IMG/VR virus record: IMGVR_UViG_2778261593_000004
Location: 1 to 12,717 of that record
Source of the DNA: a virus
Lineage: Duplodnaviria > Heunggongvirae > Uroviricota > Caudoviricetes
Strand: one strand, 5' to 3'
DNA: 12,717 nucleotides
The notes below the pieces were generated by a model that was given only the letters and a program-made list of their open reading frames with translations, was not told the origin of the DNA and ran no database searches. This document shows positions 1-12,717 of this stretch, in pieces. The position numbers and the translations under genes were made by a program. Within the stretch, counting starts at the first letter, position 1, and each line of letters starts with the position of its first letter.

Positions 1-101
1 TAAGTATTCTGCGCAATTTCCCCGACGGTCGCCGGTTCGGTGACGCTTAATTCATTAAACACCACTCTGGCGGTTTCGGTCATATCCTGCTGTTTTAGCA
101 T
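1..101 (-). CDS. Partial CDS (N-terminal 33 codons, continues beyond window start); unknown function
   Basis: ATG at 101..99 preceded by AAGGA-rich stretch; frame open to the window edge (MLKQQDMTETARVVFNELSVTEPATVGEIAQNT...). Hydrophilic, so not holin-like. Lies just downstream of the terminator that follows the Q-like gene. Confidence 0.35.
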   Translation of the reverse strand, partial: MLKQQDMTETARVVFNELSVTEPATVGEIAQNT

Positions 102-224
102 GTCTTTTTTCCTTTTCTGGTTAACGTGACATACCAATAACTCTTGTCGAAAAAGCCAGCAAGCTGAAAGACCGATATTCGGAACCACCAGCGCGTTTAA
201 TGTTCTGTGCCATTTTTCAGGCAT

Positions 225-246
225 AAAAAAACCCGCAAAAAGCGGG
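225..246 (-). terminator. Rho-independent terminator downstream of the Q-like gene (possible tR'-equivalent)
   Basis: Stem cccgc (232-236), loop aaaaa, stem gcggg (242-246); on the minus strand the stem is followed by a run of 7 T (231-225). Located about 80 nt after the Q-like stop. Confidence 0.55.
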
Positions 247-325
247 CTCTTTCAAATGTCCATGTCTGCTATTCGCCTCGCGGTACAGCTTTGCGAAGCG
301 TACCGGAATTGAAGCAGTTTTTACG

Positions 326-892
326 TCAAAAAGCAATAACTTTTTTCTCTATACCAAAAGCCATAACCATTGGTTTGTACAAAATAAATTCTGCCACCTT
401 TAGCCAATGCTCAATGCGTCTTTCACAGGTTCTTAAACTCCATTCCGGGTGTGCATCATTCAGCAGTTCAGCCATTTTGCGCTTAGTCATCCCCCGCCCC
501 ACATAACGCTGACTCAGGACATTGAGCAGCCCGGGATAACCGGCCAGGGCTTCACCAATAACCCTGTCGATTATTAACGCCTCTGAATCGGTACAATGTG
601 CCAGCCAGCTTTTTTGATTGCCGTTGATCATATCCCGCAAAAAAGCCTCAAGTTCAGGTTTGTCCAGGCCCGCTTTTTTCATCCTCCGGAGCGCCTCGTT
701 AATTGCCGTTTTTGTCAGCTTTTTAGAGGTCAGTAATTGGTTGAACATATTTCCCGTCTTACCGCCGCCAATATACGACCAACGCCCCCACATACGCAGT
801 TTCCCCTGGAGCCAGACACTTTCCAGCGTTTTCAGGCGTAAATGCTCACCGCTTTTGCCTGTAATTTCCGGGTATATCATATTTACGCTCAC
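326..892 (-). CDS. Putative late-gene antitermination protein (Q-like)
   Basis: 188-aa ORF. GTG start at 892 overlaps the rusA stop as GTGA (alternative ATG at 880). Sits immediately downstream of rusA and upstream of an intrinsic terminator, the canonical Q position in lambdoid phages. Family assignment is from memory of Q-like prophage antiterminators, not verified. Confidence 0.55.
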   Translation of the reverse strand: MSVNMIYPEITGKSGEHLRLKTLESVWLQGKLRMWGRWSYIGGGKTGNMFNQLLTSKKLTKTAINEALRRMKKAGLDKPELEAFLRDMINGNQKSWLAHCTDSEALIIDRVIGEALAGYPGLLNVLSQRYVGRGMTKRKMAELLNDAHPEWSLRTCERRIEHWLKVAEFILYKPMVMAFGIEKKVIAF

Positions 893-1248
893 TCACTTTC
901 AATTTTGTAAATCTTCACGCCCAGCCGCCCACCAGGAACGACCTGACCGCGCACTATATTGATTTCATCAAACTGCTCGTCGTCTATGAGTAGTCCCGCA
1001 TGCGTCAGCGCATCCAGTGGAGCTTTCAGGATATTGTCCAGGTCACGGCGACGCTTATCCGGTGGCTCTGCAATAATCTTTATCGCCAGCCTTCCGGACA
1101 GGTTTAACTTCAGCCGCTGCTGGCGAACAATGAGCGCCACATCACGGCGATAACGCTCACCGGATTTTGATACAAAATATGTGCTGCCACGACGTCGCCA
1201 GTAGGTGTTCACCGTCGGCGGGTAAGGCAAAACAAACTCTATACACAT
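889..1248 (-). CDS. rusA: Crossover junction endodeoxyribonuclease RusA (Holliday junction resolvase)
   Basis: 119 aa; N-terminal LPYPPTVNTYWRRRG and central DKRRRDLDNILKAPLDALTHAGLL match the RusA pattern (compare K-12 RusA LPWPPSNNRYYR ... [22 protein letters not shown]). ATG at 1248 with AAGAGG 6 nt upstream. Confidence 0.85.
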   Translation of the reverse strand: MCIEFVLPYPPTVNTYWRRRGSTYFVSKSGERYRRDVALIVRQQRLKLNLSGRLAIKIIAEPPDKRRRDLDNILKAPLDALTHAGLLIDDEQFDEINIVRGQVVPGGRLGVKIYKIESE

Positions 1249-1260
1249 CAGTAACCTCTT

Positions 1261-2307
1261 TTACCCGAGCACGCCGGTTGCAAAGGCGTGATCAAGAAAA
1301 CGAAAAATTAAATCAATCTGGGAACCATGCTTTTCTTCGAACGCCAGCGGGTCCGCATGAAGCTCGTTGTGATGCTCCCGACACAGCGGTAGCGTGAAAA
1401 TATCGTGGGCTTTTGTCCCCATTCCGCCCTGACCGTGACCAATCAGGTGATGGGGATCGTCGGCTGGCTTACCACAACACGCACACGGCTGTGTCTTTAC
1501 CCAGCGAGTGTATTTCTCATTTATCCAACGGCGACGTTTAGGCCGCTTCATGAAAGATTCAGGAGACTCCGGATCAACGGCAATACTGACCACCGTCTTT
1601 TCCTGTGGCGGGTTTTGCTGGTGGGCGTGAGGCAGCGGCGCAAGATTTTTTGTGCGCTGCTTCATTATGCTGGTGGCAGTCTGCTCTCCCGGTATGATGT
1701 CGCTTTCGCGGTACACTGAGCGGATTTTTTCCGCACGCAACCCCAGAGAACGACGCAATACTGTCTCAGGTAATGCGTCCGCCACCTGATTGCAGACCGC
1801 CCACCAGGATAATTCAGCCAGCGATAATTCCCGCTCCTGTGTGCCATTCATTGCATGGCGTATGACGTCAGTCATCCAGGCTGCCAGGTTTTGTTGAGCA
1901 AGTTGCTCAAGTGATTCGGATGTCTGGTCACGCAGCTGGTTGTCGCAGTGCCAGCACAACACCATTGCGCCGGTACCGTAACGATGTATGACGGTTTCAC
2001 TGTGATGGTAGTCACCATGAGGCCACTGGCAGGATTTGACATGACGCAGGAGCCAGTCAGACAGTGCACCAGCGCCGCCGGCAGCACGAATCACCCGCTC
2101 ATCGCTGAAAAATGGCAGTAATGATTTATCTTCCGCCAGCGGCTGGCGAACGGCGGGAACAACTCCGGACGGCAGACCGCGCATGCTTTTTGGCTCCGGT
2201 TCAACCAGCACTCTGCCGTTATGGAATACCTGCATGGATTCACGACCTGGCTTAACGATAACCACCCCAAGTTCCGGCACCAGAACAGGTCGAAGTAATA
2301 CCCGCAC
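1261..2307 (-). CDS. DUF968-like prophage protein (YdfU-like) with C-terminal Cys/His-rich HNH-like motif
   Basis: 348 aa; C-terminal CACCGKPADDPHHLIGHG...LPLCREHHNELHADP metal-binding motif. GTG start 1 nt after the stop of the upstream ORF with GGAGG embedded in that ORF's last codons (translational coupling). Same neighbourhood as ydfU in Qin-type prophages (from memory). Confidence 0.7.
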   Translation of the reverse strand: MRVLLRPVLVPELGVVIVKPGRESMQVFHNGRVLVEPEPKSMRGLPSGVVPAVRQPLAEDKSLLPFFSDERVIRAAGGAGALSDWLLRHVKSCQWPHGDYHHSETVIHRYGTGAMVLCWHCDNQLRDQTSESLEQLAQQNLAAWMTDVIRHAMNGTQERELSLAELSWWAVCNQVADALPETVLRRSLGLRAEKIRSVYRESDIIPGEQTATSIMKQRTKNLAPLPHAHQQNPPQEKTVVSIAVDPESPESFMKRPKRRRWINEKYTRWVKTQPCACCGKPADDPHHLIGHGQGGMGTKAHDIFTLPLCREHHNELHADPLAFEEKHGSQIDLIFRFLDHAFATGVLG

Positions 2308-2308
2308 G

Positions 2309-2581
2309 TTACCTCCAGATGCGTTGCTGGAATGTGCGGGACGGACGCGGTGGGCGTTCGGAATAAGGGAGTCTGACGTAGATTATCCAGTGACGATAAT
2401 CGAGGCTGAGGGCTTTCCTAAACTCATACCCACGTCTGCGGTAGTTATGAATCAGCCATTCGGCCTGTTCTTCAGTGCAGGGGTCGTGCTGATACCAGTC
2501 ATATTTGAATGTGTGAGAACACCGCCCGTGCCTGCTGGCACGAACGGTATCAGAATTGTGTAATTTGGTCTTGTGCGCCAT
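2309..2581 (-). CDS. Small prophage protein (90 aa), rem-like by position only
   Basis: ORF with ATG at 2581, stop TAA directly abutting the downstream GTG start; basic, Cys/His-containing. Weak RBS. Identity not recognised. Confidence 0.5.
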   Translation of the reverse strand: MAHKTKLHNSDTVRASRHGRCSHTFKYDWYQHDPCTEEQAEWLIHNYRRRGYEFRKALSLDYRHWIIYVRLPYSERPPRPSRTFQQRIWR

Positions 2582-2629
2582 CTGTTTTCTCTGCTGGCGC
2601 AGCAGGTGCCAGTTGTTCAGGCTAGCGCG

Positions 2630-2675
2630 ACAGATTGTAACTCATAAATAATAAAAAAGACAAAATCTGCCAAAA
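2630..2675 (-). promoter_or_regulatory. Candidate sigma70 promoter for the 90-aa/ydfU-like/rusA/Q gene string
   Basis: On the minus strand: TTGTCT, then about 18 bp of AT-rich spacer, then TACAAT, in the AT-rich gap between the 273-aa gene stop and the 90-aa ORF start. By-eye match only. Confidence 0.25.
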
Positions 2676-2695
2676 AAAACTAAAAACAAGTTCGG

Positions 2696-3517
2696 TTAAG
2701 ACACCTTCCTGAAAATTACTAGCGGTGTCATACCATAGGAAGTTTCGCTCCTCCCAATCATTCCACGAATACCTTCAAGCATATAGTCTATTGTGCCTCT
2801 GATTTCGTCAGAAGGAAATATTGACTCTGAAACTGTCTCGTCACTTATATCCGGGAGCGCATCTATAACACCGATGACATACCATTCACCAGGTATTCTG
2901 GAACCATACTTTAATGCAAGATTTCCCACATCTAAAGCTAAATCATCAGCCTTGACCGACATCCAGAATATATTTTCTTGATCGTCAAGAAGCTCTATCT
3001 GTGTAGAGAACGGGAGCAAAGAAAACATGTCAGCAGCCATTTTAGCATGATAAATTTCTTCTTGAATATCTTTTTTCTGAGCTGGTGATTTAGTCTGCTT
3101 TAGTTCTTTTTGTTTTGCATCTTTATATATAGGGAGAACATCATGAGCCATTTTCACATCAAATAATTTGATATGCCCTTTTACCATCACCAGACTTCCA
3201 ATTTCTGCATTTTCTAAGCTCGTTGCCACCAAGCCTTGTTCGTGCAACTTATCAAAAAAATTTAATGGTAAAGACCATGATGAGTCAAAATGCCGCTCTT
3301 GCGTTTTTGCAAAAGAATCCCCCGCATTTTTCCTGGCATTAAATAATGAAACGCCACCTTTAAGTTCATTTAATGAATGCTCAGAACTGGACGAGATTTG
3401 TTTTACAGCATTCAATACTCCTGATGGAAATAATTGCGCAGTGAAGTAACCTACGCGCTCTTTGTCAAGATAAAGGTAATCAAATAGTGAATCTACGGCT
3501 TGACAATCTTGATCCAT
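2696..3517 (-). CDS. Hypothetical protein, 273 aa, unknown function (AT-rich cargo gene)
   Basis: Long ORF. Start chosen at ATG 3517 (MDQDCQAVDS...) because GAGGAG lies 7 nt upstream; the track's upstream ATGATG at 3586 has no SD. No transmembrane stretch or recognisable catalytic motif seen. Visibly lower GC than flanking phage genes. Confidence 0.7.
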   Translation of the reverse strand: MDQDCQAVDSLFDYLYLDKERVGYFTAQLFPSGVLNAVKQISSSSEHSLNELKGGVSLFNARKNAGDSFAKTQERHFDSSWSLPLNFFDKLHEQGLVATSLENAEIGSLVMVKGHIKLFDVKMAHDVLPIYKDAKQKELKQTKSPAQKKDIQEEIYHAKMAADMFSLLPFSTQIELLDDQENIFWMSVKADDLALDVGNLALKYGSRIPGEWYVIGVIDALPDISDETVSESIFPSDEIRGTIDYMLEGIRGMIGRSETSYGMTPLVIFRKVS

Positions 3518-3659
3518 TGGCATGCTCCTCTTTGATCCTTGCTTTTTCCTCAGCAATTTTTCTTTGCTTTTCTTCGATTTCATCATACATCAATTGCATT
3601 TCAGTGATGTCGAACGGCTTTGAACCACTTTTAAGCAATCTCACCAGTTTGCGGATCAT
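3480..3659 (-). CDS. Small ORF (59 aa) overlapping the start of the 273-aa gene
   Basis: ATG at 3659 with GAGGAG 7 nt upstream; MIRKLVRLLKSGSKPFDITEMQLMYDEIEEKQRKIAEEKARIKEEHANGSRLSSRRFTI; stop at 3480 overlaps the downstream start by 38 nt in another frame. Below the track's length cut-off. A promoter-like AT-rich stretch lies upstream (about 3665-3760, minus strand). Confidence 0.3.
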   Translation of the reverse strand: MIRKLVRLLKSGSKPFDITEMQLMYDEIEEKQRKIAEEKARIKEEHANGSRLSSRRFTI

Positions 3660-3770
3660 TGCGTATCTCCTCTTAAATATCGTTCAAATTATGTTCAAAC
3701 AAATTCTCAAACACAACAATGTAATGCATCAATATTTGGGTGCGTTGAGGATGCCTGACACATCAGAGGT

Positions 3771-3792
3771 GGCGAGGGATTTCTCCCTCGCC
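3771..3792. other. Perfect 9-bp stem-loop immediately 3' of hok (hok mRNA 3' structure)
   Basis: ggcgaggga (3771-3779), loop tttc, tccctcgcc (3784-3792); 8 nt downstream of the hok stop on the minus strand; no U-tract follows, so not a canonical intrinsic terminator. Confidence 0.45.
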
Positions 3793-3799
3793 AGGTCTC

Positions 3800-3955
3800 T
3801 TACTCCTCAGGTTCGTAAGCTGTGAAGACAGCGACCTCCGTCTGGCCGGTTCGGATTCGTACCTCACAGAGGTCTTTCCTCGTTACCAGTGCCGTCGCTA
3901 TGACGGTTAAACAGATGACGATCAGGGCGATTAACATCGCCTTTTGCTGCTTCAT
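3800..3955 (-). CDS. hok: Hok-family type I toxin (HokD/RelF-like), 51 aa
   Basis: Translation MKQQKAMLIALIVICLTVIATALVTRKDLCEVRIRTGQTEVAVFTAYEPEE is an essentially exact Hok-family sequence. Below the ORF-track length cut-off, so found by manual translation. Confidence 0.9.
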   Translation of the reverse strand: MKQQKAMLIALIVICLTVIATALVTRKDLCEVRIRTGQTEVAVFTAYEPEE

Positions 3956-4011
3956 AGCCTGCTTCTCCTTGACCTTTCGGTCCGTAAGAGGCTAATCTCT
4001 ATGTGTCGCAT
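3952..4011 (-). CDS. Short leader ORF (19 codons) translationally coupled to hok (mok-like)
   Basis: ATG at 4011..4009, MRHIEISLLRTERSRRSRL, TGA stop overlapping the hok ATG (ATGA). Hok loci normally carry an upstream overlapping reading frame (mok) that controls hok translation. Confidence 0.4.
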   Translation of the reverse strand: MRHIEISLLRTERSRRSRL

Positions 4012-4075
4012 AGATATGGCCTCAGATTAATGTTAAGCGTCTTGCCGGACGCCGAATGTTAACTGGGGCTTTTCT
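3969..4075 (+). ncRNA. Candidate Sok-like antisense RNA with its promoter (boundaries approximate)
   Basis: Plus-strand TTGACC (3969-3974), 18-bp spacer, TAATCT (3993-3998), giving a transcript antisense to the hok leader/mok-like start; downstream nested inverted repeats (4033-4062) and ctatctgcc/ggcagatag (4073-4109). The 3' end is not defined by a clean terminator. Confidence 0.3.
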
Positions 4076-4511
4076 CTATCTGCCTTTTGGTGTTCATGCC
4101 TGAGGCAGATAGCCTCAAGCACCCGCAGCAATTCTAACTATCCAATAGATCAATGCCAACTTCTTTTCCTGCAACATCTCTCAACATAAGTGACCAAAAT
4201 TCACCCAATCAGCACAAAAGAAACATTTAAAGCGTGAATGCTACCGAACGTTCATTTCAATTACATCGTTTTGATTTTTAACAGTTTTCACCTCAACAAA
4301 TCAAATGGCATTAGCATTCATCATGGAAGAAAGACTGATAAAAATGATCATTTTCAATGACTTATGATCACACCGGGTATTGCCAAGTCATTCCTTTTAC
4401 GCCAGGATACCCACAAGTAAGTAGTCGAGGAGAGTTTGCCAATTTTTGCGATATAAATTTCAATGTCCGAAGAACCATTAATTGTTAATTGATTCTGTAT
4501 AAGGTTTTAAC

Positions 4512-5609
4512 ATGACAATTTCATATATTCCTATTCTGAAAGCGAAGCGTTCTGAGTTATCAGCTTTATCGCAGCTATCCATTGAAAAGAAATCAAAAAT
4601 TTTGCCATTACTCGAAATTGAACCAGTGCCAATTGACCCTGATTCAGGTATTGCCTTAAAGAGTTATAACGAGACTCTTATAGAGTTCGGAAAGAAAGTC
4701 TCAAAATCTTGCTCAGATATGCAAGGTGTTTATATTGATGGATTATTAATTGAAGAGCATTTTATTTCGCCTGAAGATCATTACCCTATAATAAATGCGG
4801 TTAATCAAGTTAGAGATATGGGGATAAGAGTTATTCCTGTCAGTTCACCAACTCGCCCATCTAACTATAAAAGAGCGATTGATGAATTAATACAGAATGA
4901 AATATGCTTGAGATTAACCACGTTAGATCTGGTTAACCCACAATTAATAACGCATTACATTCATCATCTGGGAATTCCTTTATCAAATATTGATATAATT
5001 ATTGACTTAAGAGATGAGTTAACCGAGGATAAACTTAATTCCGGCGAACTATATACTTTGGCAATGGGATTGATAAACAATCTGGCGCACCTCAATGAAT
5101 ACAGAAAAGTGATTCTTTCTGGGGGTTCATTTCCTACAGATCTCAGTGATATTTCTGTTGGTCTATATTCTCAACCTCGAATCGAGTGGATTTTATGGCA
5201 GAGTTTAATGAATAGAAAAGAACTTGCCAGAAATGTGATTTATAGTGATTATGGAGTACAGCACCCCGACTTTAATAGGCTTTCGACGCGATTCCCTAGC
5301 GTATCTGCCAGCGTCAGATACTCTGGAGATAATGACTTTTGGGTATTTCGAGGAAGAGTAGCTAATCGCTTTGGTTATGAACAATATGGTAAACATAGTG
5401 AGGATATTCTTGCTCATCGAGAATATTCAGGGCCTACATTCTGTGCGGGAGATAGAGACATAGAATATTATGCAAACGAGTATCAAGCCTACAAAGCCAA
5501 TCCCTCTGGTAACTATAAATTTGGTAGCCCAGAGGTATGGCGTAGGATTGGGCAAAACCATCACATAACTAAGGTTGTTGAGCAACTCGCCACTCTTTAC
5601 GGGCTTTAA
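4512..5609 (+). CDS. Beta-protein family protein (sce7725-like), 365 aa
   Basis: ATG 4512 with AAGG 7 nt upstream; N-terminus MTISYIPILKAKRSELSALS matches the Y-x-P-I-L-K opening I associate with the Pfam Beta_protein family (memory, unverified). AT-rich; the only sizeable plus-strand gene between 326 and 10249. Confidence 0.8.
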   Translation: MTISYIPILKAKRSELSALSQLSIEKKSKILPLLEIEPVPIDPDSGIALKSYNETLIEFGKKVSKSCSDMQGVYIDGLLIEEHFISPEDHYPIINAVNQVRDMGIRVIPVSSPTRPSNYKRAIDELIQNEICLRLTTLDLVNPQLITHYIHHLGIPLSNIDIIIDLRDELTEDKLNSGELYTLAMGLINNLAHLNEYRKVILSGGSFPTDLSDISVGLYSQPRIEWILWQSLMNRKELARNVIYSDYGVQHPDFNRLSTRFPSVSASVRYSGDNDFWVFRGRVANRFGYEQYGKHSEDILAHREYSGPTFCAGDRDIEYYANEYQAYKANPSGNYKFGSPEVWRRIGQNHHITKVVEQLATLYGL

Positions 5610-6147
5610 GTTTAACTCGAACAGCTTCACGAAGCTCGCCAACATCCATACTATTGGCGAGTTTTGACCATAAGACGCGTTTAGGTTTATTTTTCAAATT
5701 CTGTAGCTCCCCTACATCACTTAATAGGGAAAGCAATTCATCTTTCCAAAGAAGCATTGTTAAGGAAAGTTTGTCCACTTGTGGATTCAACTTGCTAGTT
5801 CGAATTGTTTTTAAATGGATACCTTGCCGTGCACCTTGCGTAACTTGCTTTATCCCCCACCATGATGGAACTATGCTTAAAGCATCATAAAGATGGCAAT
5901 CAGAGACAACCAACGTTACTTTATCCATCACTGATGAGTAATGTTGCACCTGCGCTGGTAATCTGAGCAAGTTATCACTCTTGCTCTTCAACTCATAACC
6001 ATGTATAAGTCCATTGATCACTGCTATATCAGCTCTGCTAGCCCCTAGATTCATCGTAAACTCATCAATGATTAGGGTGTCAGGATCTTTATGATGATCT
6101 CTCAGAATCTTGGCATGCACAGCCTTTCTTACATCAATGTCTCTCAT
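5569..6147 (-). CDS. PD-(D/E)xK nuclease-fold protein (sce7726-like), 192 aa
   Basis: N-terminal region shows hydrophobic-D (TLIIDEF), RADIAVING, then HGYELKSKSD: a D ... E-x-K arrangement typical of restriction-endonuclease-fold nucleases. Weak SD. 3' end overlaps the convergent Beta-protein gene by 41 nt. Confidence 0.75.
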   Translation of the reverse strand: MRDIDVRKAVHAKILRDHHKDPDTLIIDEFTMNLGASRADIAVINGLIHGYELKSKSDNLLRLPAQVQHYSSVMDKVTLVVSDCHLYDALSIVPSWWGIKQVTQGARQGIHLKTIRTSKLNPQVDKLSLTMLLWKDELLSLLSDVGELQNLKNKPKRVLWSKLANSMDVGELREAVRVKLKARKEWRVAQQP

Positions 6148-6179
6148 ACCATAGTTGCGCTTTCATCGACTCTCTCAAG

Positions 6180-6198
6180 CCATGATTCTATATCATGG
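6180..6198. promoter_or_regulatory. Palindromic candidate operator upstream of the nuclease-fold gene
   Basis: ccatgat-tctat-atcatgg, perfect 7-bp arms, centred about 40 bp upstream of the ATG at 6147. Confidence 0.3.
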
Positions 6199-6452
6199 TT
6201 CGCATGAATGCCATTTGATATGACCAGTGGTTAAACATTGCACAGAAAAGTGGATGTGTATTTTAACAAAAGCAATGACGGCTAACCATGTTGGTATGTC
6301 GATAAAATGTTTCAACGTAAGCATTATCTGTTCCGCCCTTTCAGACGGCCTCCTGATGTTCTGAGGGTGCAGAATCCCTCCGGTTAAGGATTTAATAAAA
6401 TTCACTTCTGATTTAAATTTTCAGTATTTTGTTGTCAGGTAGTTTATCGCCT

Positions 6453-6764
6453 TTATGCTTCAGCCTTATTTCTCAGCCATACACAAACAGGACCATCTTC
6501 AGTGTCATGAATGGAACCAATGAACCAGCCATCACCTTCCGGGCGCTCCGGTTTCCAGGAGGCAATATCGGGACCATCTGCGTCCAGATTAAAATTATCT
6601 TCATCCATAGTTCTGATGGTCCATTGAAGATTATTTTCCTCCATCCATGCGTTAAACTCTTCCGTTGAAATATGTTCTCTACCATCACAGAATTTTTCAT
6701 ACTCAGGATGCGTCCAGCAGCCATATTCATCACGTATTACTGGTATTTCTCTAATTTCATTCAT
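6453..6764 (-). CDS. Strongly acidic small prophage protein, 103 aa, unknown function
   Basis: ORF with about 26 Asp/Glu versus about 9 Lys/Arg by hand count; 8-nt overlap with the upstream ORF suggests coupling within the nin-like gene string. Confidence 0.55.
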   Translation of the reverse strand: MNEIREIPVIRDEYGCWTHPEYEKFCDGREHISTEEFNAWMEENNLQWTIRTMDEDNFNLDADGPDIASWKPERPEGDGWFIGSIHDTEDGPVCVWLRNKAEA

Positions 6765-7014
6765 TTCTGTTCTCCCACGTTTTCAGACTTTCACCACAGA
6801 ACGGGCAAAAGCACATTGCAACGCCACGACCGATATATTGCCCAGAGTGAATTTGAGCAATATCTAAGCCTGACTCGCCAGTGTTTATGTTCACACGCTC
6901 CGGGATAAATATCCCTTTACTCTTGAACGTTGGATTTCCATATTCGAGAGATTTTGATAACGCCGCGCACGGCTCTATCTGATTGCCATTAATCTGACAT
7001 TTTGATTCACTCAT
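6757..7014 (-). CDS. Small Cys-rich (zinc-ribbon-like) protein, 85 aa
   Basis: Cys pairs near both ends (SKCQINGNQIEPC ... CFCPFCGE); ATGA overlap with the upstream ORF. Confidence 0.5.
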   Translation of the reverse strand: MSESKCQINGNQIEPCAALSKSLEYGNPTFKSKGIFIPERVNINTGESGLDIAQIHSGQYIGRGVAMCFCPFCGESLKTWENRNE

Positions 7015-7217
7015 TGCTTGAATCCCTCCCGAAGCTGTTCTGCACAGTGCAGCAGCGCATCAGTCACTTCTTTCACCGTAACGAGATCGCCATCGTCCAG
7101 TCCTGCAATTTTTGCGTGCCTGACAAACGCCGCGCAAAGGTCGTTAAACGCCCCAGCCCGCACATCCGCCAAGAAAGCGTTAGCAGCAGCCAATTCCTGG
7201 TAGTCAATCTTGCTCAC
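7011..7217 (-). CDS. Small nin-region protein, 68 aa
   Basis: GTG at 7217 with AGGAGG 6 nt upstream (preferred over the track's ATG at 7247, which has no SD and a larger overlap); 4-nt overlap with the downstream ORF. Confidence 0.45.
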
Positions 7218-7947
7218 TGGTTGCCTCCTGGCAAAGCTGGGCGACAATATCGCGATATTTATTCAGCTCCCGCAGCGCGGCACAGACTCGCTCCCATTTC
7301 CGGATATCACTTTTCGCCCGACGCAGTTCGCGGTTTGCCTGTCGCAGCGATGGCAGAACCAGATTATCCACTCGCTTCTCAAGCGGCTGCACAATGTCCG
7401 CCACAGTTTCTGTTTTAATATCTTCCTGTGTTGCAGCTTCCTGTACTGGTAACGCAACACATGCAGGCTGAGGAAAGGCTTTACCATCAGTTTCCGCTAC
7501 CGATGCCGCTTTCGGCTCTGCTGGTAAATTACCGCCCGGCATGCAGTAACGAAATTTACCGTTCTGATTAACACGAATCAGACGACCTTTGCTGATTGCC
7601 ATTGCCAGCGTTGAAGCCACTTTGCGGGATGTTGTACCGAACAGCGTAGCCAGTTCATCCGCCGTTTGTGGTCCGCGTTGTTCAATCGTCGCGGTTAAAT
7701 CGCACTCTGAGATTTTCGCTACTGTCGCCGTGGTGGTTTCTTCCGGCTGTTCTTCTGGCGCTGGCTGTTCCTGCTGAACGTTGTTATCAGCCACACGCCA
7801 GGTGTATACGCTTTTATCAACGAAGCCAGCCTTTTTCAGTTCCCACAGCTCGTTCAGTACTTCTTCACGACTGATATCAAGTCGCGCAGCCAGCTCTACC
7901 GACGTGGCTTTTCCCATCGCTTTCAGTGCGTCAAAAACTGTCTCCAT
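7204..7947 (-). CDS. Prophage protein with N-terminal winged-helix-like domain, 247 aa
   Basis: Start placed at ATG 7947 ([43 protein letters not shown]) with GGGAGG 8 nt upstream; the track's upstream extension lacks an RBS. Confidence 0.65.
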
Positions 7948-7981
7948 TAAAATTTCCTCCCGGTAAAAATTACTTCTCAAC

Positions 7982-8647
7982 TCAAACAAAACCAGCCGCT
8001 TTCCGGCGTTCATATTCCTGTTTCAGTAACTCAATTGGCGTTGGCCCCGACGGGCGTTTGGGTGCCGCCAGTTGTCGCCGGACTGGCGGAACGCTCAGGC
8101 CGTTACTAACATGCTTTGCCCATTTCGTCAGCTGCCGTTCTGCAAGCCGTTTTAATTCCCCTTCGGTCATCTGGCGCTCAATCCCCTTTGAACGCATCTC
8201 GAGGCAAATGTGATACAGCACAGGCTGAGACCACGGGTATTTATCGCTTCCGTCGTATCGCCAGGACTCGTTGCGCCAGCGTCGGTACTCCTCCATCACG
8301 TTATCCACCGTCAGACCAAATGGATTTGCCCCGCTCTCCGAAATCAGCGCCACAAACTCAGCCAAGTCCGGAGGCCATGTTTCACCTGCCCTGCAACGGT
8401 CCATGCACTGGCGGCAGACCAGCCGGATTTGCTGCTCAGTCATCGCGCCAATCTGTGCAATCCAGAGCTTCGAAGGTGCGGCCCCGTTCTTCTGGGTCCA
8501 GCGGTTCGAATAAACCTCCCCCATGAGTTCCCACAGCTTCCACGCCGTTTCCGTCGCTGATAAATCCATTTTCACGTTCCCACTGCTCACGTGCTGCCCG
8601 AATTTCCTGAACTGCCCGTGATGCGGTGCCACCTGGTGCGGCTGCAT
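7982..8647 (-). CDS. Replication protein P-like (DnaB helicase loader)
   Basis: C-terminal half ([15 protein letters not shown]...[21 protein letters not shown]...[14 protein letters not shown]) resembles lambda P as I recall it (YPWKS...LTDAELRRKAADEL...IPEPVKQLP). The 5' end is uncertain because of a 212-nt overlap with the O-like ORF. Confidence 0.7.
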
Positions 8648-9476
8648 GGCTCACCCCCTTGCTGACTGGTTTAACCTGCGCCCTGACGTGATTTACGTGA
8701 CGGGCGAATTTCTGCTCCCACTGAACCTGCGTAAATACTTTCCCCTCCGCTGCCCAGTAGTCCCGGAAGGCGGCAAGTTCAGCAGGTGTAAATTCCGGCT
8801 CCGGCAAAGCCATCCCCCACACCGCAGCCCGTCGTCGAAAATCCCGTGACGGATGCCAGCTATCGGTCATCGGAAATTTTCCGATGGGTTCGCTCAGGCC
8901 ATCCAGGAATACGGGTGGCACTGCCTGTAACGACAAAACTTCCTGCTCACTGGTCGGAGCACTCTCGCGTGCATTATGTGTGGGGTTTAGATCTTTGGGT
9001 TCCTTTGGGTTCCGTGATCCGTTTTTGGGTGTCTTTGATGGAAAATTTGGGTGTCTTTGGTTATTTTCCATGCAGCTAAGAGTTCCGTTTTTGGGGCTGT
9101 TTTGTGCTGAAACATAACCATTTTCGGTACTGTTTTTATTAACAGTACCAATTTTACCCACCTTTAAAGACTCCCGTTTTTGGGTGTATTCAGGCTCGGC
9201 AACGCTTTCTTCTACACCGATAAGTCGGTACACTACGATTTGCTTTGTTCGGCCTTTTCTCTCACCGGTATCAACAATTAACCCAATCTCCATCAGGTGT
9301 CGTAAGCTGTCCTGCACAGTCTTTTTGTTCAGCTCCGTTACTTCTGCCAGTGCAGATACAGACGGGTATGCACACAAATCGGCACCGCACATATCAGCAA
9401 GCCAGGTCAATACTGACTTACTGGATGAACTGCCGGTTTTCACCTTTTTAGCCCATCGTAGTGCATCGATACTCAT
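8436..9476 (-). CDS. Replication initiator (O-like): N-terminal wHTH domain, low-complexity linker containing origin iterons, C-terminal domain
   Basis: ATG 9476 with AGGGGT upstream (the track start at 9551 is TTG). N-terminus MSIDALRWAKKVKTG...LMEIGLIVDTGERKGRTKQIVVYRLIG is HTH-like; the origin-type iterons fall inside the K/N/P-rich linker coding region, as in lambda O. Confidence 0.7.
   Translation of the reverse strand: MSIDALRWAKKVKTGSSSSKSVLTWLADMCGADLCAYPSVSALAEVTELNKKTVQDSLRHLMEIGLIVDTGERKGRTKQIVVYRLIGVEESVAEPEYTQKRESLKVGKIGTVNKNSTENGYVSAQNSPKNGTLSCMENNQRHPNFPSKTPKNGSRNPKEPKDLNPTHNARESAPTSEQEVLSLQAVPPVFLDGLSEPIGKFPMTDSWHPSRDFRRRAAVWGMALPEPEFTPAELAAFRDYWAAEGKVFTQVQWEQKFARHVNHVRAQVKPVSKGVSHAAAPGGTASRAVQEIRAAREQWERENGFISDGNGVEAVGTHGGGLFEPLDPEERGRTFEALDCTDWRDD
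8982..9191. repeat. Candidate replication origin: iterons, AT-rich tract and 9-bp-arm palindrome, inside the O-like gene
   Basis: Iterons ccgtttttgggtgtctttg (9019-9037), gaaaatttgggtgtctttg (9041-9059), ccgtttttggggctgtttt (9085-9103), cccgtttttgggtgtattc (9173-9191), plus degenerate tttgggt copies at 8994-9010; AT-rich 9106-9165 containing ggtactgtt-tttatt-aacagtacc (9126-9149). Confidence 0.55.
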
Positions 9477-9999
9477 ACGAACCCCTGGCAGACATTTGTT
9501 TATCTGCAAAGTAATATTGGTATTGCTGACGATACGCACGCTTGAAAGCAATGGCTTTTTCTATAAGCTCGTCAGTCTCACGTTCCACAACAGCTGGATC
9601 CGCAAAAAGCAGCCCGGACTCCACCACATCGCCATATTCTTTGTTTAACCCGGCGATCATGTACGTAATGCTTTTTCCGTCAGTAATTTCACAATACAAC
9701 CTGAAATCGCTGATCCGGATAGCCTCCATAATTGCCGGAATCAGCGCCGTGAATTTTTCACGCTTATCCCTGGTGTCGATAGCTTTCCAGCGTTCGAATA
9801 TCTTCACCCTGTTAACGCCCAGCGCCCGTTGATCAACCGCGCCATCATCAAACGTGACGCGATGAACATCGATGTTCGGGCGTTCTTTCAGAGCCCAGAA
9901 TGCTTCCGTGATTAATATCGTCGCCTGCTCCTGCGTCATTCCTGGTCGGCATACCCAGGCATCCAGAGCCTCGCGAGCCTGCTCAGGAGTGAATATCAT
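9448..9999 (-). CDS. YdaT-like (CII-analogue) prophage regulator, 183 aa
   Basis: Segment ERWKAIDTRDKREKFTALIPAIMEAIRISDFRLYC resembles the YdaT core as I recall it (REKIQKLIPAILAIL...RLC); sits directly downstream of the Cro-like gene, as ydaS-ydaT in Rac. Confidence 0.6.
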   Translation of the reverse strand: MIFTPEQAREALDAWVCRPGMTQEQATILITEAFWALKERPNIDVHRVTFDDGAVDQRALGVNRVKIFERWKAIDTRDKREKFTALIPAIMEAIRISDFRLYCEITDGKSITYMIAGLNKEYGDVVESGLLFADPAVVERETDELIEKAIAFKRAYRQQYQYYFADKQMSARGSYEYRCTTMG

Positions 10000-10249
10000 T
10001 GTTCACCGCCAGTGATTCATTCGCTGTAGGCTTAATCCTGCCAATAGTCAAAACCGCATCAGCAGAAAATAATCCGTTTGATGCCAGAGCAATTTTTTCA
10101 GCGTAATTTGTTTCGCCTGTATATTCTGTGCGCGGTAATTTTCCATTATTCATCCATTTGTAGATTGCTCTTTGGCTGACACCGCAAACATCGGCTACAA
10201 CAGAAACGCGAACTGCTTTGATTACATCTGCAAGTGTTGTATGGCTCAT
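9983..10249 (-). CDS. Cro-like HTH regulator (YdaS/DicC-like), 88 aa
   Basis: Start at ATG 10249 (MSHTTLADVIKAVRVSVVADVCGVSQRAIYKWMNNGKLP) with a GAGGGTG SD; HTH-like VSQRAIYKW; divergent from the DicA-like repressor. Confidence 0.65.
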   Translation of the reverse strand: MSHTTLADVIKAVRVSVVADVCGVSQRAIYKWMNNGKLPRTEYTGETNYAEKIALASNGLFSADAVLTIGRIKPTANESLAVNNDIHS

Positions 10250-10328
10250 ATCACCCTCACAATGTGAACTTTGAGTACACAATATAACAGAACTGACAGT
10301 ACATTCAATAGTAAATATCATTGAACTT
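10250..10328. promoter_or_regulatory. Divergent promoter/operator region of the immunity switch
   Basis: 79-bp AT-rich gap between the divergent cro-like and dicA-like starts; repeated GAACT (10265, 10291, 10323) and AGTACA (10274, 10298) motifs; the dicA-like ATG has no SD, suggesting a leaderless or short-leader mRNA. Confidence 0.5.
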
Positions 10329-10748
10329 ATGGTTCATGAAGATGAAGCGCGTAAAGAGTTCGCCAGCAGGCTTGCGCTAGCCTGTGATAATGCTGGTTTT
10401 GAACAACACGGAAGGCAGGCAGAAATTGCCCGTCGAATGAAGCTAACACCCAAAGCGGTTAGTAAATGGTTTAATGGAGAGACAATTCCCCGTCGAGAGA
10501 AACTGAAAGAATTGGCAGCACTTATCGGAACAACACCAACTTACCTTCTGGGGGAGGACACTGAAGAAAGCGGAAGCCTGCGTTTCTATCAGGAGTTAAG
10601 TCCGAGGCAAAAAATCATCATTGAACTTCTTGATGAACTCCCTGACAGTGAAACTGATGAACTTTTAAAAACTCTTGAGGAGAAAAAACAGAAGTACAAC
10701 GCAATTTATGAAGAATTAGCGCGAAAGAAAAAACAAAAAGCCTCCTGA
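10329..10748 (+). CDS. dicA: DicA-like XRE-family repressor, 139 aa
   Basis: HTH region (EIARRMKLTPKAVSKWFNGETIPRREKLKELAALIG); C-terminal LSPRQKIIIELLDELPDSETDELLKTLEEKK resembles K-12 DicA (LSPKELELLELFNALPESEQDTQLAEM, from memory). Supported by a downstream DicF-like RNA and DicB-like start. Confidence 0.65.
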   Translation: MVHEDEARKEFASRLALACDNAGFEQHGRQAEIARRMKLTPKAVSKWFNGETIPRREKLKELAALIGTTPTYLLGEDTEESGSLRFYQELSPRQKIIIELLDELPDSETDELLKTLEEKKQKYNAIYEELARKKKQKAS

Positions 10749-10752
10749 ATCT

Positions 10753-10786
10753 GCATAAATCCGGTAACTTCCCTCCGGGTTTATGC
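10753..10786 (+). other. 12-bp stem hairpin after dicA-like stop, followed by a C-rich tract
   Basis: gcataaatccgg-taacttccct-ccgggtttatgc (one G-U wobble), then ctcctcccccccctcct; no U-tract, so not a canonical intrinsic terminator. Confidence 0.35.
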
Positions 10787-11050
10787 TCCTCCCCCCCCTC
10801 CTGGTACTTTATCTCTCATAAAATGTACTAAAAGTACTTTACATTAGTGAACAAAAAGTACATCATATCAACCAACCCACCCCGTCCCACAGAACGCAGG
10901 GCAATACTTCGAGTTACCAGGCAGTGGTCAGGGGTTAAGTAGCCAGCCCGAGACGTAAGAACATGACGGCAGGGTTCAACTTTAACTATGCAGCAGGTTT
11001 TTGTTCCGCTACCCCGGCGTTAAGGGGATACGGCATTGCGAGGAATCACT

Positions 11051-11257
11051 ATGCAGAAACGAGAACCCGTCATCATCGCGCCAGACTATACCGATGATGA
11101 ACTTTATGAGTGGATGCGCGGGAAGATACGCGCCATTAATGACCTGAAGCAGGCCACTGATCACAAAGAGCGCCTCTCTGAAACACTGGCGTCAGTGACG
11201 CAGGATATTACCGCTCTGGCAAAAAGCGCGGCATTAAACGTTTCGCGAGTGATTTAA
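11051..11257 (+). CDS. Small prophage protein, 68 aa (YdfA/B/C-region analogue by position)
   Basis: ATG 11051 (MQKREPVIIAPDYTDDELYEWMRG...) with GAGGAA 5 nt upstream; first gene after the dicA-like repressor on the same strand. Confidence 0.5.
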   Translation: MQKREPVIIAPDYTDDELYEWMRGKIRAINDLKQATDHKERLSETLASVTQDITALAKSAALNVSRVI

Positions 11258-11281
11258 AACCACCGACTGATGAGGTTGACT

Positions 11282-11920
11282 ATGGAATTTAAAGATTTAC
11301 CAATTTCAATACAGGAAATGGCCGCTGATGTGATTCGCTCGCAACTGGCGCGGAACCCAATGATATTAGTAGATAAACTGTTCATCAGAAATTTATCAAA
11401 TCATGTCCGCAATTCCTTTACCGGACTGTATTCATATTCGTTCACAAACAATCATTGTGTAGAAAATAAAGCAAAACTCATTGCAGAAACGACAGCGCAA
11501 AACATCAACACGAAACCAACGGAAGAAGAAATTGATCAGTTTGCTCATGATGCTGGTTTAAAAAACAAGGAAGAAAAATCGCCATATGCGGGAAACATGT
11601 TTGTTTATGACAACCTTATCCGAATTCGTGGCGAAATTCCGACTGAATACCTGGCAAAAATTCACCAGGCATTACTTAAAAATCTGGAAACGGAAGTATT
11701 TGATGGCAACACCAACGGCTCCTTCGTGGTGTCAGCTCTCGCAAAAGAGTGGGATAAAGATAATCGCTGGAATGTTGCTACATGGTTATTCAGCAACAAA
11801 GCTTCCGCCCTGGAAGCTGCGGCGTGTATTTGCGACCTGCTAAGGACAGACCGCAAATACAACCTGGATGTGTATAGCTATATTTATGCTGAACACTATC
11901 CGCTATGGATTAACTGGTAA
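11282..11920 (+). CDS. Hypothetical protein, 212 aa, unknown function (AT-rich cargo gene)
   Basis: ATG 11282 (MEFKDLPISIQEMAADVIRSQL...) with GAGG 6 nt upstream; visibly AT-rich; no recognisable motif. Confidence 0.6.
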   Translation: MEFKDLPISIQEMAADVIRSQLARNPMILVDKLFIRNLSNHVRNSFTGLYSYSFTNNHCVENKAKLIAETTAQNINTKPTEEEIDQFAHDAGLKNKEEKSPYAGNMFVYDNLIRIRGEIPTEYLAKIHQALLKNLETEVFDGNTNGSFVVSALAKEWDKDNRWNVATWLFSNKASALEAAACICDLLRTDRKYNLDVYSYIYAEHYPLWINW

Positions 11921-12130
11921 TTACAAAGCTGTACCAGCAGGGCCACGACGACCAGCACCACGATTGTAATCAATGATGCCATTATAAAGCGCATTATTTA
12001 ATTTATCGTCGAATGCCGATTCTGTGAGTCCTAGCTCTGAATGAGTTTTTAATAACCCTGATTGCCTGAGTTGATTAACCAGGCATTCAATCTGTTTTTC
12101 AATAAGCGGATGTATTGGCTTGTTTGGCAT
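11921..12130 (-). CDS. Small protein, 69 aa, unknown function
   Basis: ATG 12130 (MPNKPIHPLIEKQIECLVNQLRQSGLL...) with GGAGGA 4 nt upstream; its stop codon directly abuts the stop of the convergent 212-aa gene (TAATTA). Confidence 0.45.
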   Translation of the reverse strand: MPNKPIHPLIEKQIECLVNQLRQSGLLKTHSELGLTESAFDDKLNNALYNGIIDYNRGAGRRGPAGTAL

Positions 12131-12458
12131 TTTATCCTCCATTGAGGTTACTGGTTGAGAATGGAGACCACACGTGACAGCGTGTTGTCGTGCGCCGGAC
12201 ACGGATAAGAATCCGGCACTGACAGTTTACTGAAAGGATATATCCCTGAAAAGTCAGGGCATAACGCGAAAGCGCACGGCGAAGTTATTTCTCCCTCTGT
12301 TGCGTGCCACCGGCATCTTCGACCGTGCGCTTCCGGTTGTGGCAATCCGCGAAATGGCGCGGCGGTAAGTATGGCGAGGCTATCCTTTCCTCGAGATAAC
12401 ACCGGGTTGTCAGGTTGACCATACGCCTGAGTGACAACCCCGCTGCAACAACCCATGT

Positions 12459-12511
12459 TGATTACCTTTTGGCGACATCAGTTTCATTGCTGGCTGATGT
12501 CCGCCCTTTTT
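12459..12511 (+). ncRNA. dicF: DicF-like small RNA with intrinsic terminator (boundaries approximate)
   Basis: ttttggcgacatcagtttcattgctggctgatgtccgccctttttaaag: an 11-bp stem with one bulge (12471-12505) followed by 5 T; pattern resembles K-12 DicF as I recall it (uuuggcgguaucaguuuu...cugccgcccuuuuu); lies between dicA and a dicB-like start, as in Qin. Confidence 0.45.
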
Positions 12512-12672
12512 AAAGTGAATTTTGTGATGCGGTGAATGCGGCTCAGCGCACGCGGAACAGTTAAAACAAGCAACCTTATGGGTGAAATACTCCGGCGTTA
12601 ATTGTTAACTGGTTAACGTCACCTGGAGGCACCAGGCACCGCATCACAAAATTCATTGTTGAGGACGCGATA

Positions 12673-12717
12673 ATGGAAAAGTTATCATACAATGCCAGTA
12701 CGTCTGAACTTCGTTTC
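12673..12717 (+). CDS. dicB: Partial CDS (first 15 codons), DicB-like cell-division inhibitor
   Basis: ATG 12673 with GAGGA 7 nt upstream; MEKLSYNASTSELRF compares with K-12 DicB MKTLLPNVNTSEGCF (memory); continues beyond the window end. Confidence 0.45.
   Translation, partial: MEKLSYNASTSELRF

Follow-up and report, generated by a model that had tools for sequence, protein, structure and literature searches.

We analyzed a stretch of 12,717 nucleotides, hereafter the window, which is positions 1 to 12,717 of the Caudoviricetes record IMGVR_UViG_2778261593_000004 in IMG/VR. Positions 2600 to 6450 lie in the nin region of a prophage, and the early-right genes of that prophage run on the minus strand. 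Between the nin open reading frames (ORFs) and a rem-like gene, profile matches located the three modules that an earlier note, made from the sequence letters, had described: a gene pair for a Beta-family and an sce7726-family protein (cassette A), a hok/sok unit, and a small operon with a gene for a DUF6414-family protein (cassette B). We consider it likely that this segment is an accessory (moron) part of the nin region, in which a conserved hok/sok unit is flanked by two variable positions. Cassette A is at the position upstream of sok, and cassette B is at the junction between hok and rem (hok|rem). Both cassettes would be low-GC imports.

The guanine-plus-cytosine (GC) content is 37.5% at 2675 to 3737 (cassette B) and 37.8% at 4137 to 6332 (cassette A). 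It is 52.1% in the hok/sok unit and 51.5 to 52.3% in the backbone. At third codon positions (GC3), the cargo genes have values of 0.30 to 0.42, versus 0.48 to 0.65 for the backbone genes. The earlier note had given each of the three modules AT-rich flanks; the hok/sok unit, at 52% GC, is not AT-rich.

For comparison, 80 IMG/VR loci were fetched via YdfU (92 to 96% identical; the best 80 of at least 598 matches). We mapped the window proteins onto these loci, clustered their ORFs, and aligned the DNA junctions. A second sample consisted of 60 evenly spaced rows of 5215 matching E. coli records, and all genome counts below refer to 5426 complete E. coli genomes. hok was present upstream of rem in 65 of the 74 informative IMG/VR loci and was not found in the other 9. 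The hok/sok unit was 93 to 98% identical among relatives. Window positions 3300 to 7100 matched 4742 of the 5426 genomes, mostly via the hok/sok segment. The IMG/VR loci and the 60-row E. coli sample agree, and hok/sok is therefore a near-constant anchor and not exchangeable cargo, with variable sequence to both sides. In dozens of loci, the variable segments are bounded by hok/sok, by rem/ydfU, and by a 65-bp linker with the nin ORF of 103 amino acids (aa), which we call nin103.

The hok|rem junction had about 12 states. The spacing from hok to rem was 169 to 170 bp, which is the empty state, in 29 loci, and 455 to 564 bp in 23. It was 0.8 to 1.5 kb in 8 loci and 2.0 to 2.3 kb in 5, and it is 1218 bp in the window. 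The occupants downstream of hok included two versions of Rosmer RmrT/RmrA (RmrA matches at 6e-105 and 5.5e-102), a 75-aa protein with a Fic/Doc protein (Phd/Doc), pairs of a helix-turn-helix (HTH) and a Peptidase_M78 protein (HTH/ImmA), and small ORFs of unknown function. In the 60-row sample this junction was mostly empty or held one small ORF, and a Doc toxin, an ImmA/IrrE and HTH pair, and IS1203 appeared once each.

Upstream of sok we counted at least 15 different immediate neighbors. The occupants of this position included 3HP (Hp1 at 5e-41) in relative L064, a 604-aa GmrSD_N/NsnA-like protein, an SMEK-domain protein with a methyltransferase, and an NgoMIV endonuclease with a C5 methyltransferase, which replaces hok in strain A34. 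In the Qin prophage of strain K-12, relBE occupies this position. The order there, ydfT-ydfU-rem-hokD-relE-relB, agrees with the relB-relE-hokD arrangement that the earlier note had given. K-12 Qin thus shares ydfU-rem-hokD with the window and has an addiction module immediately upstream of hokD. It differs in that relBE stands where the window has the Beta/sce7726 pair and in that its hokD-rem interval is empty. Altogether, at least four PADLOC-recognized system types lie within 3 kb of hok. The cargo thus includes many defense and addiction genes but is not limited to them, and the position upstream of sok grades into a general mosaic of small nin genes. A block of four genes (177, 234, 142, and 365 aa, three of them on the opposite strand) takes the place of cassette A between nin103 and sok in L073 (6372 to 9400), L074, and L077. 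None of the four had a PADLOC match, and the 234- and 365-aa proteins were without a Pfam match.

Cassette A (4137 to 6332) spans 2196 bp and comprises a convergent gene pair with both upstream regions, so that it occupies both strands. The Beta-family protein (365 aa; 4512 to 5609, plus strand) matches PF14350 at 4e-52 and the PADLOC model PD-Lambda-2_C at 1.3e-41. The sce7726-family protein, which resembles cII of satellite P4 (192 aa; 5569 to 6147, minus strand), matches NCBIfam NF033832 at 1.7e-56 and the PADLOC model 'cll' at 2.4e-28. The two genes overlap by 41 nucleotides (nt). The predicted structure of the sce7726 protein (predicted local distance difference test score [pLDDT] of 94) has a PD-(D/E)xK restriction-endonuclease-like fold with an E...D...ExK motif, and its residues E29, D40, E52, and K54 are invariant. 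Sequence and profile searches of the PDB with the Beta, sce7726, and DUF6414 proteins returned nothing below E = 0.09. We infer that the sce7726 protein may act as the effector nuclease of the pair, with Beta as a putative sensor or regulator.

Cassette A was found in 93 of the 5426 E. coli genomes. It was full length in all of them and at least 99% identical in 92, and 65 share the context from hok to nin103. We compared seven backbones that carry it, which differ in their replication genes and have either ydfU-rusA or NinG-type genes beside Q. Cassette A was 99.4 to 99.5% identical across these backbones, while the hok/sok unit was 93 to 98% and the nin103 block 85 to 87% identical. This identity step between cassette A and its flanks points to recent horizontal spread of the cassette.

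A described relative of cassette A is the gop-beta-cII system of P4, which protects against lambda and P1 (PMC9122126). In that system, listed in PADLOC and DefenseFinder as 'gop_beta_cll', the genes for a Beta-family and an sce7726/cII-family protein likewise converge. RefSeq names P4 cII an sce7726-family protein, and in P4 both gop and beta are convergent with cII. The window Beta and P4 beta share 23% identity along the full length (E = 2e-8), and the window sce7726 protein is 28% identical to P4 cII. However, cassette A has no gop, and its cII homologue lacks about 80 C-terminal residues of P4 cII. The 3' ends of the pair overlap by 41 nt in cassette A, whereas a terminator separates them in P4. 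A tblastn search with P4 Gop gave no match in 4137 to 6332, where only ORFs of 40 and 43 codons lie upstream of Beta. Gop is the component described as toxic in P4. Gordonia phages, a Pseudomonas phage region, and elements with a P4-type primase also have the gop-less convergent pair, with 3' ends that overlap or abut. Because the pair recurs without gop in these elements, the two genes form the conserved core, which cassette A has in common with the beta/cII part of P4.

Three smaller observations concern this gene pair. Upstream of both cassette A genes, at 4297 to 4312 and 6207 to 6222, is a 16-nt inverted repeat in which 15 of the 16 positions are complementary and which keeps one orientation relative to each gene. 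We considered it as a candidate shared operator. The motif is absent from other Beta/sce7726 cassettes, so it may be a chance occurrence, and the sce7726 upstream regions do not align. A second, divergent sce7726/Beta pair is present in L019 (19166 to 20795) and L031 (19685 to 21044). Its proteins are 53% and 29 to 30% identical to the sce7726 and Beta proteins of the window. The L019 pair is downstream of ORFs that could, by their size and position, be lysis genes, and it would mark another moron position in the same prophage type. Finally, in many O111 strains an IS1203 copy is annotated in the hok-to-nin103 block with cassette A (for example in NC_013364.1, 1445149 to 1449535), and the hok beside it is annotated merely as 'Hok/Gef family protein'.

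Cassette B (2675 to 3737, minus strand) spans 1063 bp and consists of a promoter, a gene for a 59-aa protein, and the DUF6414-family gene. The earlier note had called the 273-aa product of the last gene an orphan. In fact, it has a conserved 59-aa partner whose gene overlaps its own by 38 nt and shares its promoter, and cassette B is a two-gene operon with a promoter of its own. The 273-aa protein (2696 to 3517, minus strand) matches PF19952 at 1.7e-7 (31.7 bits; cut-off, 25) and phrog_9699 at 9.5e-71. Its model (pLDDT of 77) gave only partial matches to an oligonucleotide/oligosaccharide-binding (OB)-fold-like structure and to helical hairpins. The family of this protein has 1360 cluster representatives. 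The 59-aa gene (3480 to 3659, minus strand) overlaps the start of the DUF6414 gene. A small homologous ORF precedes the DUF6414 gene in every context that we looked up. Both the length of 59 aa and the 38-nt overlap are kept in homologues from Enterobacter, Enterobacteriaceae, Klebsiella, and Pantoea, which are 35 to 57% identical. The Methylomagnum version has 63 aa and no overlap. The alignment of the partner proteins revealed a conserved C-terminal motif resembling GSRLTKHRFTI.

The promoter of cassette B (3688 to 3716, minus strand) consists of TTGTGT, a 17-nt spacer, and CATAAT, within an invariant GAACATAATTT. All seven Enterobacterales copies that we aligned have this sigma-70-type arrangement (TTGnnn, 17-nt spacer, CATAAT) in the invariant GAACATAATTT, with proteins that are 35 to 57% identical and contexts that are unrelated. 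Cassette B was found in 6 of the 5426 E. coli genomes. Five of these have the one Stx2e prophage described here. In the sixth, strain A19 from a vampire bat, a 97.2% identical cassette is at the same hok|rem junction of a different backbone. L007, L073, and L016 have 13 to 60 bp in place of the cassette. Its other sites are Rac-like prophages of Klebsiella and other Enterobacteriaceae, where it immediately follows the cI-like repressor, a tail gene cluster, where it is on the opposite strand, and an island that also has SduA_C (Shedu-like) and PemK-like genes.

The conserved hok/sok unit lies between the two cassettes (3738 to 4136, minus strand). hok itself (3800 to 3955, minus strand; RefSeq name hokD) encodes a Hok/Gef peptide (PF01848 at 1.7e-23). 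The sok/hok-leader RNA (3953 to 4124, minus strand) matches Rfam RF01794 with 107.5 bits (gathering threshold, 59) over the full model length. A 19-codon leader ORF, MRHIEISLLRTERSRRSRL (3952 to 4011, minus strand), ends in ATGA and so overlaps the hok start codon. Phage Rac-SA53 has an in-frame ORF of 70 codons with the annotation mok, and in the window (3952 to 4021) a stop codon breaks this frame. The hok promoter (4131 to 4159, minus strand; -10 TAGAAT at 4136 to 4131, -35 TTGGCA) is the best in the region, with 10 of 12 matches. Its -10 element is inside the conserved unit, and its -35 TTGGCA is donated by the end of cassette A. The -35 region differs in relatives, which read ...TTTGCG/TTGGCG...AGTTAAG|TAGAAT. 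At the other end, a terminator, CCCGCTTCGGCGGG followed by a T-run, closes the hok unit in 13 of 14 relatives inspected. In these terminator-bearing relatives, the cargo downstream of hok starts straight after the terminator. The intrinsic hok terminator GCACTTAACCCGCTTCGGCGGGTTTTTG is missing from the window (3738 to 3800, compared with L004 to L076) and from E. coli A19, and cassette B begins there. Because cassette B replaced the terminator, hok transcripts may read into the 59-aa/DUF6414 operon.

On the rem side, a conserved zone upstream of rem (2582 to 2674, minus strand) borders the position downstream of hok, and homology to relatives stops between 2598 and 2674. It contains a promoter-like site with a -35 element at 2663 and a -10 element ending at 2634 (9 of 12 matches). 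The far border of cassette A is the 65-bp intergenic linker (6333 to 6396, minus strand). The linker recurs, 87 to 100% identical, in 35 of the 103 loci that were fetched; many of these loci lack nin103, and the linker is always at a module junction; one example lies just upstream of a gene for a 60-aa acidic protein. We tried the linker as a structured RNA or terminator and rejected this, as it folds no better than shuffled sequence (z = -0.3). The earlier note had also given every module promoter-like sequences of its own. This failed as a general property, since promoter-like sites are not enriched in 2300 to 6800 (13 versus 12.6 ± 3.9 in shuffles), and only those of hok and of cassette B, the latter conserved across contexts, are individually convincing. 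Terminators are not enriched in the same interval (1 versus 3.5 expected).

We suggest that the cassettes were most likely swapped by homologous recombination between conserved flanks. These would be the hok/sok unit, the zone upstream of rem, and nin103 with the 65-bp linker. Several related lambdoid prophages usually reside together in one E. coli genome and would supply the recombination partners. This route is the most economical, since genomes have related sequence in a median of 2 places and in as many as 10 to 12. The lysogen probably expresses the cassettes, which would serve in exclusion or anti-phage defense, and hok/sok would probably penalize loss of the region.

Several points weigh against this reading. 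Our samples, the 80 best YdfU matches and the 60 E. coli rows, are not a census. The occupants upstream of sok include non-defense genes, namely those for the Paa adhesin, a BCCT transporter with a DUF2254 protein, and QueH, as well as insertion sequence (IS) elements and small nin genes. Defense by either cassette is a prediction. The DUF6414 protein of the window and 33 relatives had no PADLOC match, and its predicted fold is uninformative. PADLOC-type rules would not call a system in cassette A, because gop is absent. In addition, the borders at 3738 and 4136 were measured against the window, and in most relatives the hok unit includes its own terminator and -35 element. A reading of them as razor-sharp borders of hok was rejected; they are the borders of the cassettes in the window, and the hok unit is longer in relatives. 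Because the unit reaches further in most relatives, both cassettes here replaced regulatory ends of hok, and simple flank recombination alone does not explain the loss of these ends.

One alternative is the arrangement proposed by the earlier note, a single slot with three independently mobile stacked modules (Beta/nuclease, hok/sok, and orphan). Some features of hok/sok fit this, as it is compact, runs from promoter to terminator, and has variable sequence on both sides. Hok-like units also occur at 694 plasmid places, hok is absent in the 9 relatives mentioned above, and strain A34 has the NgoMIV restriction-modification system in its stead. However, rem is the neighbor of hok/sok in K-12 Qin, in 65 of 74 relatives, and in the majority of the E. 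coli genomes sampled, with downstream backbones of both the ydfU and the NinG type. Its GC content is backbone-like, and its identity of 93 to 98% is what a vertically inherited backbone would show, as opposed to 99.4% for cassette A. We regard this alternative as quite improbable. What stands of the earlier proposal is that cassettes A and B are variable; hok/sok is near-constant, and there are two positions, not one. Nor is it likely that the segment reflects ordinary mosaicism, with no privileged slot, no functional bias, and cargo that consists of recombination leftovers. Lambdoid phages are the textbook example of mosaicism in the nin region. This explanation gains some weight from the stretch between the DUF1627/Ren-like genes and sok, which is a patchwork of small phage ORFs of unknown function with the many sok neighbors counted above, from the common non-defense cargo, and from the lack of enrichment of promoter-like sites. 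On the other hand, hok|rem is a single, discrete point for which about a dozen states exist, and the larger states are almost all of toxin-antitoxin or defense type (Rosmer twice, Doc, and HTH/M78 pairs). The PADLOC-recognized systems near hok, and the sharp borders and steep identity step of the cassettes, also speak against leftovers. The related claim of the earlier note, a variable slot for the exchange of addiction and defense genes, was largely borne out, as relatives carry differing cargo, but that cargo also includes Paa, BCCT/DUF2254, QueH, and IS elements.

Dedicated site-specific insertion by an integron-like, transposon-like, or homing element would account for the precise borders and for the reuse of the same junctions in both backbones with cassette B, and the prophage encodes the HNH-related YdfU. 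We found no recombinase or transposase in the cassettes and no terminal repeats or target duplications at their borders, and the same cassettes sit at unrelated positions and junctions in other phages, which makes this explanation very improbable. That the exact gene content is a conserved ancestral state has a negligible probability. Five nearly identical genomes fit it, and nothing further. The comparative test named in the earlier note came out against such conservation: the gene content of the window is present in 5 of the 5426 genomes (a feral pig isolate of US origin and four Belgian swine enterotoxigenic E. coli [ETEC]), 93 genomes have cassette A and 6 have cassette B, and the cassettes are low in GC and far more similar across genomes than their flanks. 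We retain the conserved hok/sok unit with a variable position on either side as the preferred reading.

The arrangement resembles the hotspots of P2 and P4 phages, in which a fixed position holds many alternative arrangements, including defense systems and toxin-antitoxin pairs (PMC9122126). In both cases conserved genes bound the position, and the P4 hotspot holds gop-beta-cII, the relative of cassette A. 3HP, first described at the P2/P4 hotspots, occurs here in L064. The setting is different, as this is a lambdoid prophage with two positions flanking hok/sok in the nin region and not one position next to cos. Moreover, the cargo includes virulence and metabolic genes here, and that of the window is candidate defense cargo. 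The two positions are a well-delimited new instance of the known moron hotspot phenomenon and leave the understanding of how hotspots work unchanged. We found no paper on a hok-flanking hotspot; to judge by its title, Brenes and Laub 2025 (Cell Host Microbe), on E. coli prophage defenses, may overlap.

Other known systems share single components with the cassettes. Defense by PD-lambda-2 requires its third component, a Beta-family protein, which does not act as the antitoxin (Vassallo et al. 2022, PMC9519451). The window Beta matches the model of this component C, as noted above, but the HigB-like component A and the HTH-peptidase component B are not in cassette A, where the partner is the nuclease-fold protein. 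Dodola consists of DolA (DUF6414) and the ClpB-like DolB, according to the account of Millman et al. 2022 given in bioRxiv 10.1101/2024.10.26.620412. The 273-aa protein passes the Pfam DUF6414 threshold. However, we found no ClpB-like partner in the window or in any of nine contexts inspected, and the PADLOC Dodola models gave no match for 34 family members even at E ≤ 1. We therefore rejected membership of cassette B in Dodola; its conserved partner is the 59-aa protein. Phage lambda carries rexAB directly after its cI repressor. Cassette B is likewise found after a cI-like repressor in some prophages, with its own promoter, but it has no sequence or fold relationship to RexA or RexB.

From these comparisons we tentatively propose, as an idea that may well prove wrong, that the 59-aa/DUF6414 operon with its GAACATAATTT promoter could be an undescribed and self-contained anti-phage or superinfection-exclusion system that moves among at least four moron positions of Enterobacterales prophages. 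In the same proposal, Beta and sce7726 would be a stand-alone nuclease defense core that ranges from Gordonia phages to E. coli.

About 88% of complete genomes contain sequence related to the ydfU-to-hok segment, and the results pin variation in this very common E. coli prophage family to two junctions around a conserved hok/sok. At these junctions, validated systems (Rosmer, 3HP, restriction-modification, relBE, and Doc) alternate with uncharacterized cassettes. The conserved anchors could therefore help to mine new defense genes from lambdoid prophages, and both cassettes are concrete candidates for testing. If the proposal on the two cassettes is true, the hok/sok-flanking junctions would be a practical place to search, for example in the four-gene block of L073, L074, and L077, and further targets are proteins of 130, 152, 356, and 447 aa of unknown function. 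A changeable defense load of Stx-converting phages could affect their spread, and it could also affect phage biocontrol of swine Shiga toxin-producing E. coli (STEC) and ETEC.

The window is part of a Rac/Qin-like Stx2e prophage of E. coli that is integrated at ompW. It is 99.4% identical to a prophage of strain RM10740 (from a feral pig) and 98.2% identical to prophages of the four Belgian swine ETEC strains. The stx2e of the RM10740 prophage is located about 2 kb past the left end of the window. The backbone order that the earlier note gave, P, nin ORFs, rem-like, ydfU, rusA, and Q, was confirmed on the minus strand. The downstream backbone consists of Q/DUF1133 (326 to 880), rusA (889 to 1248), the HNH-related ydfU/DUF968 (1261 to 2307), and the rem-like gene (2309 to 2581), all on the minus strand, and from 326 to 2581 it is 86 to 95% identical in relatives. 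Upstream, again on the minus strand, are nin103 (6453 to 6764), nin ORFs of 85 aa (6757 to 7014) and 68 aa (7011 to 7217), DUF1627 (7204 to 7947), P (7982 to 8443), and an O/DnaT-like gene (8436 to 9476). cro and ydaT are also among the early-right genes, and a cI-like repressor gene lies in the early region on the plus strand (10329 to 10748).

Some further features lie outside the nin region. In the RM10740 prophage, the interval from Q to the lysis genes contains stx2eA/B together with a DNA methyltransferase gene and three tRNA genes (L001, 3075 to 4310). Near the right end of the window, at 12456 to 12650, Rfam gave sub-threshold matches to DicF (26 bits; gathering threshold, 48) and STnc100 (40 bits; threshold, 47), which are just before dicB, annotated by RefSeq beyond that end. 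Downstream of the cI-like repressor is a 216-aa ORF (11270 to 11920) with a GC content of 38%, part of which is covered by an incomplete pseudogene in RefSeq (11405 to 11920). Relatives have cassette B at this position, and the region may be the remnant of additional cargo.

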